Positions 592 to 30,965 of a DNA stretch of 30,965 bases are shown piece by piece. This stretch comes from a virus, in UHGV virus genome UHGV-0305615. One strand, given 5' to 3'. Positions within the stretch are counted from its first letter, which is position 1. The number at the start of each line of letters is the position of its first letter. The notes under the pieces were generated by a model. The model saw nothing but the letters and a program-made list of their open reading frames with translations, searched no databases and was not told the origin of the DNA. The translations under genes and the position numbers were made by a program.

Positions 592-915
592 GATGACCTC
601 CTGTTTGTTTTTAGTTACGAAAACCAGTTAGTAGCTGGTGATCGGGTGTCAACTAGAGCACAAACAGTAGCTCCGGGCATATTCCCCTTTCGGGTGTTGT
701 ATTACGCCTCTCCACCCGACCTTTGTACGGATGTGACTATGCCAGATTGCAGGCATAAAAAAGCCGCAAAGCTATCGGGTGCGGATGACCGCTGTTTGTT
801 TTCTAGTGCGGTCAGTATGCGATAGCTCTGGCGGCATTGTCAAATCATGCGCCATTGAGTCCAGCAATCTCTGCAATACCAATAGCGAGATAATCGCGAT
901 TCGTCAGGCGTGATT

Positions 916-4680: not shown

Positions 4681-4695
4681 TTACCGTTGAGGTAA
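4681..4695. promoter_or_regulatory. Predicted operator (dyad TTACCGTTGAGGTAA), leftward early promoter region
   Basis: Exact TTACC-N5-GGTAA dyad just downstream of a leftward TTGACA -35 (rc of 4718-4723). Confidence 0.5.
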
Positions 4696-4742: not shown

Positions 4743-4757
4743 TTACCCATAAGGTAA
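4743..4757. promoter_or_regulatory. Predicted operator (dyad TTACCCATAAGGTAA)
   Basis: Exact TTACC-N5-GGTAA dyad between repressor-gene terminator and leftward promoter. Confidence 0.5.
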
Positions 4758-4814: not shown

Positions 4815-5399
4815 TTATTGTTTGTTTTTTTCGTTCTGGTTGATGACAAATTCAATGTAACTTTCGATCTTTGCCTTCTCTGTTTCAGGTAACAATGCGT
4901 AGCGCGAGCGGTCATAGTTGATAGTTGCAGGGTCATGCGGATGAATCAGTAGTTCATATCCGTGACGCCCGAATGCAGATGCAACATTCTCCAGGGTGGA
5001 AATGGAAACGCTGACTTCATTGTTTAACAGGCGGCTTATTGTCACCTGGGCGACGCCGGATGCGCGGTGAAGTTTTCCCTGAGTTGAAAGGTCGCGGCTT
5101 TCACTCATCCAGCGTTCCAGGTTGTGAGCTGCCAGCTGACCAATGTCGCTTGGGCCGACAGGCTGAAAACCTTCCTGAGAAAGCGAGCGATCGATATCAA
5201 GCCAGTTACGGGGTTTATTGGCGGCAGCTTCAATTTTTCGCGCAACCTGGTCGCCGATAACCTTCTTGCCAAGAGCCCAGCGGTTTACCAGATTTGCCTG
5301 AGTTCCAAGTTTTTCTGCCATCCGCGTCTGAACACCATTGAATTCACGGTCGATCAAGTCGTTGAGATTTTGCCTGCGGACGTCCTGGATACTTTTCAT
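4815..5399 (-). CDS. Prophage repressor, CI-like, two HTH domains, no peptidase S24 (autocleavage) domain
   Basis: 194 aa; two XRE-like HTH stretches (MAEKLGTQANLVNRWALGKK... and ASGVAQVTISRLLNNEVSVSISTLENVAS...); divergent from Cro-like gene; dyad operators on both sides. Confidence 0.7.
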   Translation of the reverse strand: MKSIQDVRRQNLNDLIDREFNGVQTRMAEKLGTQANLVNRWALGKKVIGDQVARKIEAAANKPRNWLDIDRSLSQEGFQPVGPSDIGQLAAHNLERWMSESRDLSTQGKLHRASGVAQVTISRLLNNEVSVSISTLENVASAFGRHGYELLIHPHDPATINYDRSRYALLPETEKAKIESYIEFVINQNEKNKQ

Positions 5400-5454: not shown

Positions 5455-5469
5455 TTACCCAACAGGTAA
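5455..5469. promoter_or_regulatory. Predicted operator (dyad TTACCCAACAGGTAA) in repressor/cro intergenic region
   Basis: Exact TTACC-N5-GGTAA dyad. Confidence 0.55.
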
Positions 5470-5502
5470 ATGCACCTCATAGGTAACTATCCTTGATTTT
5501 TG

Positions 5503-5517
5503 TTACCTTATGGGTGA
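5503..5517. promoter_or_regulatory. Predicted operator (TTACCTTATGGGTGA) overlapping rightward promoter
   Basis: One mismatch in right half; lies within the spacer of a TTGATT -35 / AT-rich -10 upstream of the Cro-like gene. Confidence 0.45.
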
Positions 5518-7761: not shown

Positions 7762-7776
7762 TTACCTGTTGGGTAA
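7762..7776. promoter_or_regulatory. Predicted operator (dyad TTACCTGTTGGGTAA) filling a promoter spacer
   Basis: Exact dyad lying between TTGATA (7755-7760) and TAAAAT (7777-7782). Confidence 0.55.
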
Positions 7777-7823
7777 TAAAATATTCTAAAATCTATTGAT
7801 TTCGTGTATTATGTGGTTTTTAA

Positions 7824-7838
7824 TTACCTTAGGGGTAA
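7824..7838. promoter_or_regulatory. Predicted operator (dyad TTACCTTAGGGGTAA) 4 nt upstream of ATG 7842
   Basis: Exact dyad. Confidence 0.5.
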
Positions 7839-10414: not shown

Positions 10415-10440
10415 GCCGCCAACTATGGCGGCTTTATTTT
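10415..10440 (+). terminator. Rho-independent terminator separating early genes from packaging genes
   Basis: GCCGCC-AACTAT-GGCGGC followed by TTTATTTT. Confidence 0.65.
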
Positions 10441-10451
10441 GCATGGTACTA

Positions 10452-10466
10452 TTACCAAAACGGTAA
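10452..10466. promoter_or_regulatory. Predicted operator (dyad TTACCAAAACGGTAA) upstream of TerS
   Basis: Exact dyad between terminator and TerS start; extra TTACC half-site at 10469-10473. Confidence 0.5.
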
Positions 10467-10483
10467 CTATTACCACGGTGGTT

Positions 10484-11080
10484 ATGATGCCTGCTGAACC
10501 TAAAACCTATAAACGCAAATCAACGCAATTTAAGCCACTAACAGCAATGCAGGAGGCTTATTGCCAGTCATACATCAAAACGCCTGAAAACCAGACTCAG
10601 GCAGCGATTAACGCAGGATTCTCCCCAAATACAGCGGCAGTTAAAGCCAGTGTCATGATGCGCGATGAACGCATTCAAAAACGGATTGCCGAGTTGATGG
10701 AGGAGCGCAACAAACGAATGCGCGTCAGTGCTGATTACGTTCTCATGCGCCTGGTGGAGATCGACCAGATGGACGTGATCGACATCCTCAACGACGATGG
10801 GAGCCTTAAGCCAATCCGCGAGTGGCCGAAAATCTGGCGCACTACGCTTAGTGGCTTTGATCTGTCATCGACCATCATGAACATGAACGAGGATTCGATA
10901 GAGACAATCCTCAAAAAAATTAAATGGCCTGACAAGGTGAAGAACCTCGAACTGATTGGTAAGCACGTCGACGTCAACGCATTCAAAGAACGCCTGGATG
11001 TTAATGTGAATGTGACAATTGCTGATCGCATAGCGGCAGCCAGGAAGAGACTGAAAGAACGTCAGGATGGCAATCAGTGA
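10484..11080 (+). CDS. Terminase small subunit
   Basis: Track ORF 10406..11080 trimmed to ATG 10484 because the 5' part contains the terminator and operator; family guess from sequence character and position before TerL. Confidence 0.65.
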   Translation: MMPAEPKTYKRKSTQFKPLTAMQEAYCQSYIKTPENQTQAAINAGFSPNTAAVKASVMMRDERIQKRIAELMEERNKRMRVSADYVLMRLVEIDQMDVIDILNDDGSLKPIREWPKIWRTTLSGFDLSSTIMNMNEDSIETILKKIKWPDKVKNLELIGKHVDVNAFKERLDVNVNVTIADRIAAARKRLKERQDGNQ

Positions 11081-13215: not shown

Positions 13216-13292
13216 TGGCGTGGCATGCAGGATTCGAACCTGCGACCAACCGCTTAGAAGGCGGTTGCTCTGTCCGACTGAGCTAATGCCAC
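13216..13292 (-). tRNA. tRNA-Arg (anticodon UCU)
   Basis: 77-nt minus-strand sequence GTGGCATTAGCTCAGTCGGACAGAGCAACCGCCTTCTAAGCGGTTGGTCGCAGGTTCGAATCCTGCATGCCACGCCA folds as a cloverleaf: 7-bp acceptor stem, GCTC/GAGC D-stem, ACCGC/GCGGT anticodon stem with loop CTTCTAA, GCAGG/CCTGC T-stem with TTCGAAT loop, encoded CCA. Confidence 0.9.
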
Positions 13293-13614: not shown

Positions 13615-13629
13615 TTACCTGAAAGGTAA
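13615..13629. promoter_or_regulatory. Predicted operator (dyad TTACCTGAAAGGTAA) between tRNA leader and virion genes
   Basis: Exact dyad; a leftward TTGACA -35 (rc of 13646-13651) lies 17 bp away. Confidence 0.5.
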
Positions 13630-28600: not shown

Positions 28601-29072
28601 GCATAACAGGGTGCTAGTATCTGGTATCCAGCAGGGCGATGCTGCATTCTATCTTGGTGCGCTTGGCACGATTGCGCTTGGCTCAATGGTCTATATGATG
28701 AAACAGAAGTTAAGCGGTCGCGATATCGACTACAGCTGGAATAACCTTGTGAAAGAGGGGATCGACCGGGGCGGAATGCTTGGCTGGCTCTCTGAGCCGC
28801 TGAATACCGTTGAGAACATAAGCGGCGGTAGGTTTGGTCTTGGCGCGATGTTTGGTGCGCCTCCGGTATCAAGGTTTCAGAGTCGTAATGCTATTGGTGC
28901 TTTACTTGGTCCTACCTTTGATCTTGGCGGTGATGCCGCGACGGTTGCGAATGGTGTACTTAACGGAGAATTTGACAGCCAGCAAACCCACGCGGTCCGT
29001 AAAATGCTACCTTTTCAGAACCTGTGGGCGATATCACCGTTACTAAATAAAGTTGAAGAGCAGATGAAATAG
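25683..29072 (+). CDS. Large internal virion / ejection protein, gp16-position
   Basis: 1129 aa; TAATG overlap with previous gene; call from size and position. Confidence 0.55.
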   Translation: MPIYEQDPKELLGEDIQQIAAPDDSNFYMETPSLLSAVNPFTSDQRVQRSRQAAFRIDNTLGSFIASAPFSQFDRVEGYNPFDNDAADIKGYEDFADSFINSGSHEETMAIKHRIDKQRTDREYLSEMGGAGTISSLAMGMIDPVNVAAMFIPVGAVARGGSIAETAGRFALANAAGGGVSEAALQATQEARSPMESVSNVVVDALVGGILGAGAQLLAGPSAREAVVNSVGNHLRGMDSPQSIGAAQVFNTTLDQEQLAGLGLANKTLSVTPAGRLAQSPSLVSRQINQQLAENNYFFAKNDEGLATFTAVETKIKQYDAMLYKQMEATRDAYQQYSKSVSARGVKRMNFIDFNEAVGMAMRRGDQSDIPEVSQAAARIRPIFETTKARMQELGILPEDIDVVTAKSYLPRIYKFDKILSDRTEFRGRIANWIQGISAKGADKAGQRIERINSLLKTAEESAPRADALASEIAEAEKWSGKKILLMEELDKRNKLISQETDTQARLTRIEKELAETSSEKLQARMMKESSDLKTRLDDIAQAKSELPVYQRHMELLDNPRKYRSELRRLQKRANSTTRLNASRERALKQMEPLSREEAEDAADEIVNKIIGAPSGLVPADIIPERLVGRAGFTKSRTLLIPDERIEDFLESDVNYIMESYLRQVAPEIELTAQFGRKDMGEQIRQVSEEYTRLIKEAKTPKRRAVLEKQREADIRDITAMRDRLLGTYGAPQDPRSFFVRAGRVARNINFLRLLGGMTVSAATDLMRPMMQHGLRKSLGPMVSMLKNMDSVKIATRDLREMAVGLDYVLSTRTKAIADLTDPYSRRSAAERGLNWMTQKFGNWTLMNQWNSALKSWSGIIVQSRILDAARQVSAGGTLSKSEMRKMAQVGINEDVLRRIGEQFGKHGEDMDGLLTGHSHLWDDRFAREIFQSAVLKDVDSVIVTPGVGDTPLFFSKEGWKMITQFKTFIFAQHNRVLVSGIQQGDAAFYLGALGTIALGSMVYMMKQKLSGRDIDYSWNNLVKEGIDRGGMLGWLSEPLNTVENISGGRFGLGAMFGAPPVSRFQSRNAIGALLGPTFDLGGDAATVANGVLNGEFDSQQTHAVRKMLPFQNLWAISPLLNKVEEQMK

Positions 29073-29513
29073 CTATTCACAATTAGTGATGGCGTATGTA
29101 TCAAATATATTGCCATCACTAAATACATACCTATACTCAATCTCTCCGCCAAGGTGAATAAATGCTTTCATTTGCCTGTTGGAGCAAATGCTCGATTTTG
29201 AATAATTTCGCATTACACTCTTTAATTTATTTTCTAAGGTTACATCACCATTATAAACTTTTGATAAATAGCTGTTGTTGTAATTAAGATGCGCTACAAC
29301 TAAAAGTTTGTTTAGTATTGCATTTATTGAAACAATAGACATATTATCATTCAATTTTATGGGAAGTGACTTTCCTGCTTCTGATGCAATTTTGTTTGCA
29401 TGTGCACACATATCCTCATTTATTAAATTCTTAAAACATATGTCGTTTGCAAACGAAAAAATTGGTAGGATAAACAAAACGGTAGCTGTAATAGCGTGCA
29501 TCGGCTTAATCAT
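29073..29513 (-). CDS. Hypothetical secreted protein (146 aa) with N-terminal signal peptide, AT-rich cargo gene
   Basis: MIKPMHAITATVLFILPIFSFA then NDICF...; 4 Cys; coding DNA roughly one-third GC versus ~50% in flanks. Confidence 0.55.
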   Translation of the reverse strand: MIKPMHAITATVLFILPIFSFANDICFKNLINEDMCAHANKIASEAGKSLPIKLNDNMSIVSINAILNKLLVVAHLNYNNSYLSKVYNGDVTLENKLKSVMRNYSKSSICSNRQMKAFIHLGGEIEYRYVFSDGNIFDTYAITNCE

Positions 29514-29525
29514 TAGGTGACCTTT

Positions 29526-29975
29526 ATGTTCAAGAAGATGATCAACAGATTAATCGGTGGTAAGGAGGTTAGCAATAAAATTCAACCTCTTATCTTTAAG
29601 GATAACTTTTCAGCTTTTGAGTATGCGTGTAAGTATCTTGACACAAGCCTTTCAGCCAATAAACCAATGCCAGCCATCATCATACCTGGTCCCAGTGGGG
29701 AACAGCCAGTTTTGCTAGATTCTGGAAGACAAAGGGCAATGCTGAAGGTGTGCTCAGCTGATGGTGGATTTTTTGTTATTGCCGATTCATCTTACAGCAA
29801 AGGACCAAAGCTGAGGATTGGTGATCTTGTTGCTTGGTTGCCTGTGAGTTATGCCGAAGAATTAACGGATAAAATAGAAGATCCTCGCTCCGCTATGGTT
29901 GGCTTTATATTGGGAACCATTCATCCTGAACTAACATCTACTGGCTGGAAGGGTAAAGAAAGATTTCGCAAGTAG
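29526..29975 (+). CDS. Hypothetical cytoplasmic protein (149 aa), AT-rich cargo gene
   Basis: ATG 29526 with AGGTGA RBS (track start 29517 is GTG); divergent from the secreted-protein gene with only ~12 bp between starts. Confidence 0.5.
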   Translation: MFKKMINRLIGGKEVSNKIQPLIFKDNFSAFEYACKYLDTSLSANKPMPAIIIPGPSGEQPVLLDSGRQRAMLKVCSADGGFFVIADSSYSKGPKLRIGDLVAWLPVSYAEELTDKIEDPRSAMVGFILGTIHPELTSTGWKGKERFRK

Positions 29976-29976
29976 C

Positions 29977-29988
29977 GTGACATGTCAC
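29977..29988. repeat. Perfect 12-bp palindrome GTGACATGTCAC (copy 3 of 3)
   Basis: Exact sequence, 1 nt after the TAG of the 149-aa gene. Confidence 0.6.
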
Positions 29989-30013
29989 AGGCCGCTTTCG
30001 CGGCCTTGTTTTT
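29989..30013 (+). terminator. Rho-independent terminator
   Basis: AGGCCGC-TTTC-GCGGCCT hairpin followed by TTGTTTTT. Confidence 0.6.
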
Positions 30014-30173
30014 AACGAATGCCACCGCCGCCCGGGCGGGAATCCGCAGAACGCCCACCGCAGCGGGAGCCGTCAGCGGCAGTATCGCTGTCGTGCTGAC
30101 AACGACCGGCAAAGGCCTGAGTTGAAGCTACCAGAGACAACAAAACGAACAGTGCAGCAAATGCTTTTTTCAT
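30012..30173 (-). CDS. Hypothetical small secreted peptide (53-aa precursor, 2 Cys in mature part)
   Basis: Internal ATG 30173 of track ORF 30012..30245; MKKAFAALFVLLSLVASTQAFA signal-peptide-like; upstream TTGACG-16-TATAGA promoter-like element; RBS weak. Confidence 0.35.
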   Translation of the reverse strand: MKKAFAALFVLLSLVASTQAFAGRCQHDSDTAADGSRCGGRSADSRPGGGGIR

Positions 30174-30245
30174 TGTGACATTTCCATCTATAAGCCACCT
30201 CGATGTGGCGTCAATGAGTGTAGCACTGACTTTTGTTTCGTCCAT

Positions 30246-30266
30246 AAAAAAGCCCGCAACGCGGGC
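30246..30266 (-). terminator. Rho-independent terminator ending the membrane-protein operon
   Basis: GCCCGC-AAC-GCGGGC hairpin followed on the minus strand by T6 (A-run 30246-30251 on plus). Confidence 0.7.
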
Positions 30267-30270
30267 TTAT

Positions 30271-30603
30271 TCAGTTATTTACTTTCTTTGGCACTATTGC
30301 TGATAATGAGATCATAAAGCCAGTTAGAGCAGCAATAATTAATGGGAATATGAAAGCATCTGAAGTTCTCAGTGGATTCTTCATATCGAACAGAATAACA
30401 ATGAAGAATGCGCTGGTTGCAAAAGTAGATGATGAATAAACCTCATTCATCTTGTATTGCAACTTATCCAAAGAAAAAGGAGGCGTATCTTTGCAAACGG
30501 CATCCCATATCAGATGAACAGCAAGATAAGCAATGCACAGTATGAAATAAAACCTTGTCAATTGCTGTGCATCTCTGGGCGCAAGCCAAGATAAATCAGG
30601 CAT
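30271..30603 (-). CDS. Hypothetical membrane protein (110 aa, about three predicted TM segments)
   Basis: Hydrophobic stretches FYFILCIAYLAVHLIW, FATSAFFIVILF, AFIFPLIIAALTGFMISLSAIV; start 1 nt after upstream gene's stop. Confidence 0.6.
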   Translation of the reverse strand: MPDLSWLAPRDAQQLTRFYFILCIAYLAVHLIWDAVCKDTPPFSLDKLQYKMNEVYSSSTFATSAFFIVILFDMKNPLRTSDAFIFPLIIAALTGFMISLSAIVPKKVNN

Positions 30604-30604
30604 T

Positions 30605-30793
30605 TTAGTTGGCTAACTTCTTTGCGGCATAGATAGCAGGGAGTGCAACAGCACCAGCCACAGCAAATGCATAGGCTATCCCAGCTGTAACAGTAAAAGC
30701 AGGAAGCAGGAAAGATAATCCGCCTGGTAGGGCAAAGCCTAAGCCCGCTCCGCCAATAATGGCCTTCAGCAATGTAATGATGTTGATTTCCAT
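30605..30793 (-). CDS. Hypothetical small membrane protein (62 aa, Gly/Ala-rich, two hydrophobic segments)
   Basis: GAGGGGG RBS; MEINIITLLKAIIGGAGLGFALPGG... with charged C-terminus KKLAN. Confidence 0.55.
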   Translation of the reverse strand: MEINIITLLKAIIGGAGLGFALPGGLSFLLPAFTVTAGIAYAFAVAGAVALPAIYAAKKLAN

Positions 30794-30819
30794 GTTTCCC
30801 CCTCATGTAAACTCTCGGT

Positions 30820-30834
30820 TTACCTTTGGGGTAA
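30820..30834. promoter_or_regulatory. Predicted operator (dyad TTACCTTTGGGGTAA) abutting the -10 of the membrane-operon promoter
   Basis: Exact dyad; minus-strand promoter TTGCAG (rc of 30857-30862), 17-bp spacer, TACTAT (rc of 30834-30839). Confidence 0.5.
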
Positions 30835-30905
30835 TAGTACTCTATTCACCCCCAGTCTGCAATCTGTACAGAATTATTTAAAGGCACGTCCCTGTGCCGC
30901 CGCCG

Positions 30906-30965
30906 TCAGAAGAACCCTGCCTTGTCGTTGATGTACTCCGCGTGAGTCTGGATATCACGCAGGCA
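30906..30965 (-). CDS. 3' end of a minus-strand gene (19 C-terminal codons ...CLRDIQTHAEYINDKAGFF); 5' part beyond window
   Basis: Open frame from window edge to TGA (rc of 30906-30908), followed by a weak hairpin (30883-30898). Confidence 0.3.
   Translation of the reverse strand, partial: CLRDIQTHAEYINDKAGFF

Follow-up and report, generated by a model that had tools for sequence, protein, structure and literature searches.

The window analysed here is the whole 30,965-nt stretch of UHGV virus genome UHGV-0305615, a Uetakevirus prophage (epsilon15/phiV10-like podovirus) whose region matches TL-2011b, phiv142-3, and phiV10. Uetakevirus prophages were present in 470–504 of the 5,426 complete E. 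coli genomes (~9%). The exact mosaic, in which 146-aa and 152-aa genes accompany a cassette of 62-aa and 110-aa genes, was absent from the complete E. coli genomes in the collection, and the best matches to positions 28800–30965 among these genomes covered at most 75%; this part of the window appears to be a fresh mosaic. Because no complete E. coli genome carried it, the sequence past position 30965 could be deduced from relatives only. The following features were recognized near this end of the window, listed from upstream to downstream of the cassette promoter.

30906–30965, minus strand: 3' end of a BRO-N domain gene, putatively antirepressor-like (BRO-N annotation in identical E. coli prophages)
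30908–30906, minus strand: TGA stop of the BRO-N gene
30883–30898, minus strand: GC hairpin GGCAC-AGGGAC-GTGCC followed by TTTAAAT, 3' of the BRO-N stop
30862–30857, minus strand: -35 hexamer TTGCAG (TTG invariant in 12 diverged loci, last three bases variable)
between 30857 and 30839, minus strand: promoter spacer ACTGGGGGTGAATAGAG, 17 bp
30839–30834, minus strand: -10 hexamer TACTAT (TA invariant, AT 92% identical across the 12 loci)
30834–30820, both strands: predicted Rep operator TTACC-CCAAA-GGTAA, TTACCCCAAAGGTAA (exact motif match)
30823–30807, minus strand: stem-loop GTAAAC-CGAGA-GTTTAC with a 6-bp stem and a 5-nt loop, between the operator and the Shine-Dalgarno sequence
30804–30798, minus strand: Shine-Dalgarno sequence GAGGGGG (purine block kept in the alignment of homologous loci)
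30793, minus strand: ATG start of the 62-aa ORF
30605–30793, minus strand: gene for a 62-aa Gly/Ala-rich hydrophobic protein (phrog_13406 in PHROGs)
30271–30603, minus strand: gene for a 110-aa protein with three predicted helices (phrog_36716), an ORF one base after the 62-aa stop
30268–30250, minus strand: strong intrinsic terminator closing the cassette (8-bp stem with 6 GC pairs, T-run)
30012–30173, minus strand: 53-aa signal-peptide ORF bounding the accessory slot on its other side (PHROG 'moron, membrane associated protein')

The spacer, the ATG, the TGA, and the GC hairpin were read directly from the sequence. An initial annotation had described this region as the promoter of a two-gene membrane-protein operon with an operator dyad abutting its -10. 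Every element that it named (the -35, the 17-bp spacer, the -10, the dyad, the ribosome-binding site, and the ATG) was recovered in place on the minus strand; the range that it gave, 30794–30860, clips the first two bases of the -35 at its end. The operon was borne out as well, with the 62-aa and 110-aa ORFs lying one base apart and both being strongly hydrophobic.

The operator has 5-bp arms and a 5-bp centre, its extended form being ATTACC-N5-GGTAAA. The last T of the -10 TACTAT is also the first T of the operator, which spans approximately -7 to +8 of the TTGCAG-17-TACTAT promoter, with transcription predicted to start near 30827. The two hexamers match 7 of the 12 consensus sigma-70 positions, including the six most informative ones (TTGnnn/TAnnnT). 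A consensus promoter scan of the window did not list this promoter, and we therefore relied on comparative footprinting. A LexA box was also sought in the promoter region of the cassette, where only CTGT-N8-CAGA, not a LexA box, was found. A second candidate Rep site, TTACATGAGGGGGAA at 30810–30796, was treated as a chance match: it has two mismatches, overlaps the Shine-Dalgarno sequence, and is not kept in Klebsiella-type loci, and approximately 13 such two-mismatch sites are expected per window.

For the footprint, we aligned the sequences preceding the 62-aa gene in 12 diverged homologous loci. These were drawn from E. coli, Klebsiella, Enterobacter, Cronobacter, and unassigned phage contigs, and one of them carried a different cargo cassette. 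Pairwise identity was 1.00 for the TTG of the -35 and for the TA of the -10, 0.92 for the AT of the -10, and 0.97 for each operator arm, and fell to 0.45 in the operator centre and 0.38 in the spacer, whose length was always 17 bp. The -35 occurred as TTGCAG, TTGCAT, TTGCAA, TTGGCT, TTGCGT, and TTGCTT, and the -10 as TACTAT, TAAGAT, TATATT, TAAAAT, and TAATAT. Such a pattern would be expected if a sigma-70 promoter and an operator abutting it were under selection, and it points to TTGCAG-17-TACTAT as a weak but genuine sigma-70 promoter. In one locus (L081, IMGVR_UViG_2695420596_000007), a 7-bp deletion upstream of the 62-aa gene cuts the spacer to 10 bp, and the promoter is probably dead there. 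One-mismatch operators (GGTGA, GGTCA, TTAGC, and TTCCC) were seen in other lineages and would imply that control of the slot varies naturally in stringency.

The generic 5+5 dyad by itself is without significance; it is through its repetition in the window that TTACC-N5-GGTAA becomes significant. Allowing at most one mismatch, the motif was found 11 times against 0.47 expected, a count that none of the 100 shuffles reached; eight of the copies were exact (~0.03 expected from base composition) and three had one mismatch. The copies flank the repressor gene on both sides and occur at other promoter regions, and none lies inside an annotated gene. Apart from the cassette operator, the principal sites were as follows.

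4681–4695 and 4743–4757: left-operator pair, spaced by 62 bp, on either side of the leftward early promoter TTGACA-17-AATCAT and downstream of rep
5455–5469, 5472–5486 (two mismatches), and 5503–5517: tripartite right operator separating rep from a cro-like gene of opposite orientation
5840: operator copy after the cro-like gene
7762–7838 (sites 7762 and 7824): operator pair, 62 bp apart, at the resolvase-like gene promoter TTGATT-17-TTTAAT, the -10 fused to the operator
10452–10484 (sites 10452 and 10470): two tandem operators after TGgTACTAT and before the small terminase subunit gene, with equivalents annotated in epsilon15
13615–13629: single operator upstream of the portal operon, with an equivalent site annotated in epsilon15

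A -10 whose last T opens TTACC, as at the cassette, recurs at PL, P7842, the terminase promoter, and the BRO-N promoter. In the GenBank record of epsilon15, the 17-mer ATTACC-N5-GGTAAT is annotated as a 'protein_bind' feature of the lysogeny repressor, and the annotated sites occupy equivalent positions at the terminase, portal, ant/tailspike, OL, and resolvase loci; SPC32H, phiv142-3, and TL-2011b likewise carry the motif at equivalent places. The site at 30820–30834 has the exact core and the left flanking A, with A instead of T on the right. Its centre, CCAAA, also conforms to the rule that the central base of N5 is A or T, which held for 100% of the 39 exact sites in four genomes. On this comparison, the 15-bp dyad can be assigned as one more instance of the established Uetakevirus repressor operator. 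A chance origin, with a fortuitous palindrome beside a fortuitous pair of hexamers, might be entertained for a 7/12 promoter below the scan threshold and a generic 5+5 dyad that is not rare; however, it is effectively refuted by the 11 motif copies, the footprint in 12 loci, and the epsilon15 annotation.

Two further arrangements were observed at these sites. In the 4681/4743 and 7762/7824 pairs, one site lies upstream of the -35 and the other is fused to the -10, and both promoters share the -35 context ATCTATTGA; this suggests that one Rep tetramer could bridge both sites of each 62-bp-spaced pair. At the small terminase gene (10440–10484), an extended -10, TGgTACTAT, without a -35 is followed by the tandem operators 18 bp apart, an arrangement that, in contrast to lambda, may place putative late promoters under direct control of the repressor.

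The genome also encodes the protein presumed to bind the operator.

4815–5399, minus strand: Rep, the prophage repressor of 194 aa (Pfam HTH_3; PDB 5D50_A)

Rep carries two HTH domains but lacks an S24 peptidase domain; its gene is flanked by OL (two sites) and OR (three sites). The protein aligned over its full length with SPC32H Rep (PDB 5D50 chain A, E=4e-42). With the phiV10/ZX5/phiv142-3 repressor it shares 100% identity, and with that of SPC32H/epsilon15 42%. Its presumed binding to TTACC-N5-GGTAA is based on genomic position and the epsilon15 GenBank annotation. The same motif was found in epsilon15/SPC32H, despite the 42% identity of their Rep, and in cassette-carrying Klebsiella-type prophages, a uniformity that leaves no operator variation with which repressor specificity could be compared. 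In ZX5, overexpression of the repressor reduced endolysin and holin transcripts by >99.9% and abolished lytic transcription (PMC9782041). According to a secondary source, SPC32H Rep binds palindromic DNA as a tetramer, and tetrameric Ant splits it into dimers (PMC9638917). In an E. coli prophage identical to the window over 30200–30965, an 85-aa gene past the window end matches SPC32H Ant (5D50_E, E=4e-47), and the promoter of the Ant homologue, TTGATA-17-TATTGC, contains a perfect LexA box, CTGTATAAATATACAG (L003 11830–11925, minus strand). A Rep operator also lies approximately 50 bp upstream of the Ant homologue promoter, facing the tailspike gene (L003).

In E. coli phages, conservation runs from the BRO-N gene through the operator and ends within approximately 3 nt of its right arm. 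A survey of 57 IMG/VR loci sharing the promoter-operator, together with E. coli genomes, revealed at least eight alternative cassettes behind it in E. coli phages, with cargo including the following.

Slot cargo: two distinct modules with matches to YafO_toxin of Pfam (scores of 26.3 and 19.7 bits; threshold, 25 bits)
Slot cargo: the orf9/orf10 pair of phiv142-3
Slot cargo: two related proteins of approximately 210 aa
Slot cargo: a 69-aa + 288-aa pair
Slot cargo: a DUF4760 protein
Slot cargo: the 62/110-aa pair of the window

Six of the seven IMG/VR cassette types rejoin the backbone at the conserved 53-aa signal-peptide ORF; for the 211-aa type, no backbone anchor was found within the stretch read. 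The promoter-operator thus seems to belong to the phage backbone, forming a fixed Rep-gated slot in which the cargo is swapped. The 53-aa ORF follows the cassette terminator and has a possible promoter of its own, TTGACG-16-TATAGA, with no operator upstream; it may be expressed in the lysogen. Since E. coli homology ends within approximately 3 nt of the operator right arm in all eight cargo types, the dyad could be viewed mainly as a recombination boundary, a microhomology for cassette exchange with no regulatory role. We consider this highly improbable. Among the Klebsiella, Enterobacter, and Cronobacter loci, the flanking sequence has drifted apart, whereas both hexamers, the operator arms, and the 17-bp spacing persist in front of the same cargo, and conservation of this kind indicates selection on function rather than a junction scar; moreover, a boundary would leave the fusion of -10 and operator unexplained.

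In each of the 30 loci examined, the 62-aa gene was accompanied by the 110-aa gene. An invariant core, KAIIGGAGLGFA..GGLS...PAFTVT, marks the 62-aa family, and a conserved H30, D34, and NPLR..D motif the 110-aa family. The AlphaFold model of the 110-aa protein consists of three helices (pLDDT 68), and its comparison with PDB using Foldseek gave only matches with E>1, that is, no meaningful fold match. Neither protein matched a profile in Pfam, NCBIfam, or PADLOC, including the defence and toxin-antitoxin models of these collections (YafO_toxin was matched only in two sister cassettes), and PHROGs lists both as being of unknown function. The homologues, all annotated as hypothetical, were restricted to Enterobacterales. 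We also considered a class II microcin with a double-glycine leader and its immunity protein. Such a leader would end in GG and show acidic and hydrophobic consensus positions, and a dedicated C39-peptidase ABC exporter would be encoded nearby. The GG at residues 14–15 of the 62-aa protein is invariant, but residues 1–15 are hydrophobic and conserved like the rest of the protein, no exporter gene was present in the 30 loci, and Pfam and NCBIfam gave no match; the microcin reading was rejected. In Serratia fonticola (GCA_048352715.1, L072 5600–6620), a 61/114-aa pair stands alone between an ABM-domain gene and guaA. It adjoins the Uetakevirus attB core AATCATTCCCACTCAAT, where neither a prophage nor a Rep operator was present, and may be a domesticated remnant. 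The pair could be a superinfection exclusion or toxin-immunity system, useful enough to be retained in Serratia after loss of the phage.

With these components, the cassette could be controlled as follows. In the lysogen, Rep bound to the dyad at 30820–30834 would block RNA polymerase, and the cassette would be held low. Upon DNA damage, LexA would be cleaved and the small antirepressor Ant would be made from the gene just past the window end; Ant would then dismantle Rep tetramers, and the cassette promoter would fire together with PL and PR. The resulting transcript would comprise the 5' stem-loop, the Shine-Dalgarno sequence, the 62-aa and 110-aa genes, and the terminator. Any read-through from the BRO-N promoter (TTGATT-18-TATCAT in relatives, with a pair of Rep operators 93 bp apart at P-BRO) would be under Rep control too. 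Repression in the lysogen with co-induction alongside the early genes is the best-supported mechanism, to which we assign a probability of approximately 0.78; we infer Rep occupancy at 30820–30834, the transcription start, and the strength of repression from sequence.

Published expression data for a close relative bear on this mechanism. In phiv142-3, whose Rep is identical to that of the window and whose promoter-operator is essentially identical, the same slot holds orf10 (L004 6153–6656), which has been published as a serum-resistance gene in a prophage of avian pathogenic E. coli. By qRT-PCR, orf10 was upregulated 2^4.12-fold in chicken serum relative to LB, while the PR-proximal orf41 and orf40 rose 2^4.56- and 2^3.68-fold, respectively, and the PL genes and the BRO-N gene also increased (PMC7724020, Table S1). 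This co-induction of the slot with the early operons, a connection not drawn in that study, is the co-regulation predicted by the Rep model. The initial annotation had placed the dyad against the -10 and predicted from this placement a cassette that is off in the lysogen and on at derepression. The placement is confirmed, the dyad being the phage's own operator motif at -7 to +8 of a footprinted promoter, and the expected behaviour follows from this geometry, with indirect support from the co-induction of orf10. The same study reported, however, that deletion of orf10 lowered serum survival and reduced K1 capsule (kps) gene expression even in LB (PMC7724020). A deletion phenotype in lysogen cultures means that the slot is not fully silent at the population level; either it leaks or a spontaneously induced subpopulation matters.

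The same phenotype supports a different balance, in which the single operator would repress only partly and the cassette would in effect be a moron, expressed in the lysogen at a level useful for lysogenic conversion or host fitness and merely boosted on induction. The cassette has one operator, as opposed to two or three at PL, OR, P7842, the terminase promoter, and P-BRO, with the paired sites at PL, P7842, and P-BRO lying 62–93 bp apart; as Rep is reportedly tetrameric and most other regions have two or three sites, repression here may be leaky. Like morons, the cassette brings a promoter and a terminator of its own, and the 62/110-aa pair persists beside guaA in S. fonticola without phage or operator. 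Some slot cargo consists of YafO-like toxin modules, usually thought of as lysogen-expressed functions, which counts against an induction-only reading. On the other hand, the operator stands in the classic occlusion position with arms 97% conserved across genera, orf10 behaves like the early-operon genes in the phiv142-3 expression data, and spontaneous induction is frequent, ZX5 lysogens releasing 10^7 PFU/mL (PMC9782041), so that the phenotype could stem from an induced minority. We therefore regard a leaky, lysogen-serving cassette as unlikely, although it keeps appreciable weight beside repression and co-induction. The further proposal that the genes serve a lytic-phase function rather than lysogenic conversion was overstated, being partly contradicted by the orf10 deletion phenotype, the singleton operator, and the operator-less pair in Serratia.

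Between the operator and the Shine-Dalgarno sequence lies the stem-loop at 30823–30807, an element missing from the initial annotation, which overlaps the operator's right arm by 4 nt. It is the minimum free energy structure of the predicted 5'UTR, at -4.2 kcal/mol, an energy no better than that of shuffled sequences (z = -0.32), and its support is therefore comparative. The 6-bp stem and 5-nt loop recur at this position in homologous loci, with three stem classes, GUAAAC/GUUUAC, UUCAAC/GUUGAA (one copy with a G-U pair), and UAGGU/ACCUA, with loops varying freely. In the alignment, which was registered by hand, 98.3% of the cells pair, compared with 7–43% in slid controls, and five of the six pairs have changed on both sides. 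The dyad at 30807–30823 is thus probably a 5'-terminal stem-loop of the mRNA; a palindrome acting at the DNA level instead is conceivable but less probable. From general knowledge of such structures, it might stabilise the transcript.

The closest known system is the Rep/Ant immunity of Uetakevirus itself (epsilon15 gp38, SPC32H Rep-Ant, and phiV10/ZX5), with which the window shares the repressor, the operator motif, and the genome-wide scatter of sites; relatives of the window likewise have the Ant gene and LexA box next door. Epsilon15 and SPC32H lack the BRO-N and cargo region, and an operator on an accessory cassette is a feature of the window; at such a slot, none was annotated in the GenBank records examined or mentioned in the accessible literature. 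The CI/Cro operators OL and OR of lambda are similar in having a dyad that overlaps the promoter core, polymerase occlusion, and a three-part OR that separates the divergently transcribed repressor and cro-like genes. Unlike the lambda repressor, Rep lacks a RecA-cleavable peptidase domain and contains two HTH domains, induction runs through an antirepressor, and operators extend beyond the immunity region to putative late (terminase and portal) and accessory promoters. A single repressor with many sites across the genome, including late and accessory regions, is also known from the gp71 'stoperators' of mycobacteriophage L5. Those are asymmetric 13-mers acting on elongation in an orientation-dependent manner, whereas the Rep sites are symmetric dyads placed at promoters.

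The cassette also resembles phage morons in the sense of Juhala and Hendrix, with its own promoter and an intrinsic terminator (30268–30250) around replaceable cargo (at least eight alternatives), highly exchangeable and set between backbone genes. Its promoter differs in carrying the operator of the prophage repressor, which predicts silence or low expression, the opposite of moron behaviour. As with the Stx toxin genes of lambdoid phages, accessory cargo would be tied to prophage derepression and not to lysogeny; Stx is coupled via late antitermination (Q/pR'), whereas here an operator for the repressor, set on a dedicated promoter, would provide the coupling directly. Overall, the type of switch is conventional and well understood, and the element is real and regulatory; the cassette genes are probably kept off in the dormant phage. 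What is modestly new is the Rep-gated, cargo-swapping slot and the conserved 5' stem-loop. A broader reading would combine a conserved Rep-gated Uetakevirus slot, at least eight unrelated cassettes deployed at induction or early infection, and the 62/110-aa pair as a possible new membrane-acting system; taken jointly, these parts make a tentative proposal to which we give perhaps one chance in four, and the combination as a whole is more doubtful than not.

For Uetakevirus prophages, these results suggest a rule: a gene behind ATTACC-N5-GGTAAT fused to a -10 should obey the Rep/Ant/LexA switch. The cargo of the hypervariable accessory slot, including the serum-resistance gene of the avian pathogen, is predicted to be induction-coupled and not constitutive, which is relevant to the interpretation of prophage 'virulence' genes and to the design of prophage-induction reporters. 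If this reading of the slot is true, induction or early infection would be the specific occasion for the expression of an entire class of accessory genes.

Several minor observations concern RNA elements. The stem of the GC hairpin at 30883–30898 covaries, being GGCGC/GCGCC in Klebsiella and Enterobacter loci, and its loop AGGGAN is kept. The terminator scan did not flag this hairpin, which is followed by only three U; it could be a weak terminator or a hairpin at the 3' end of the BRO-N mRNA. A leader of approximately 270 nt separates the Rep-operated promoter of the BRO-N gene from its start codon (L003 10417–10687, minus strand). This leader holds terminator-like hairpins, such as GCCAGACGTGG followed by TTTTTTT, and may be an attenuator or a regulatory RNA. 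An Rfam scan of the operator and cassette region found no known RNA family. Elsewhere in the window, Rfam matched sRNA-Xcc1 near the left end (632–721, minus strand, 64.8 bits), and a tRNA-Arg(tct) gene lies between the terminase and portal genes (13216–13292, minus strand).
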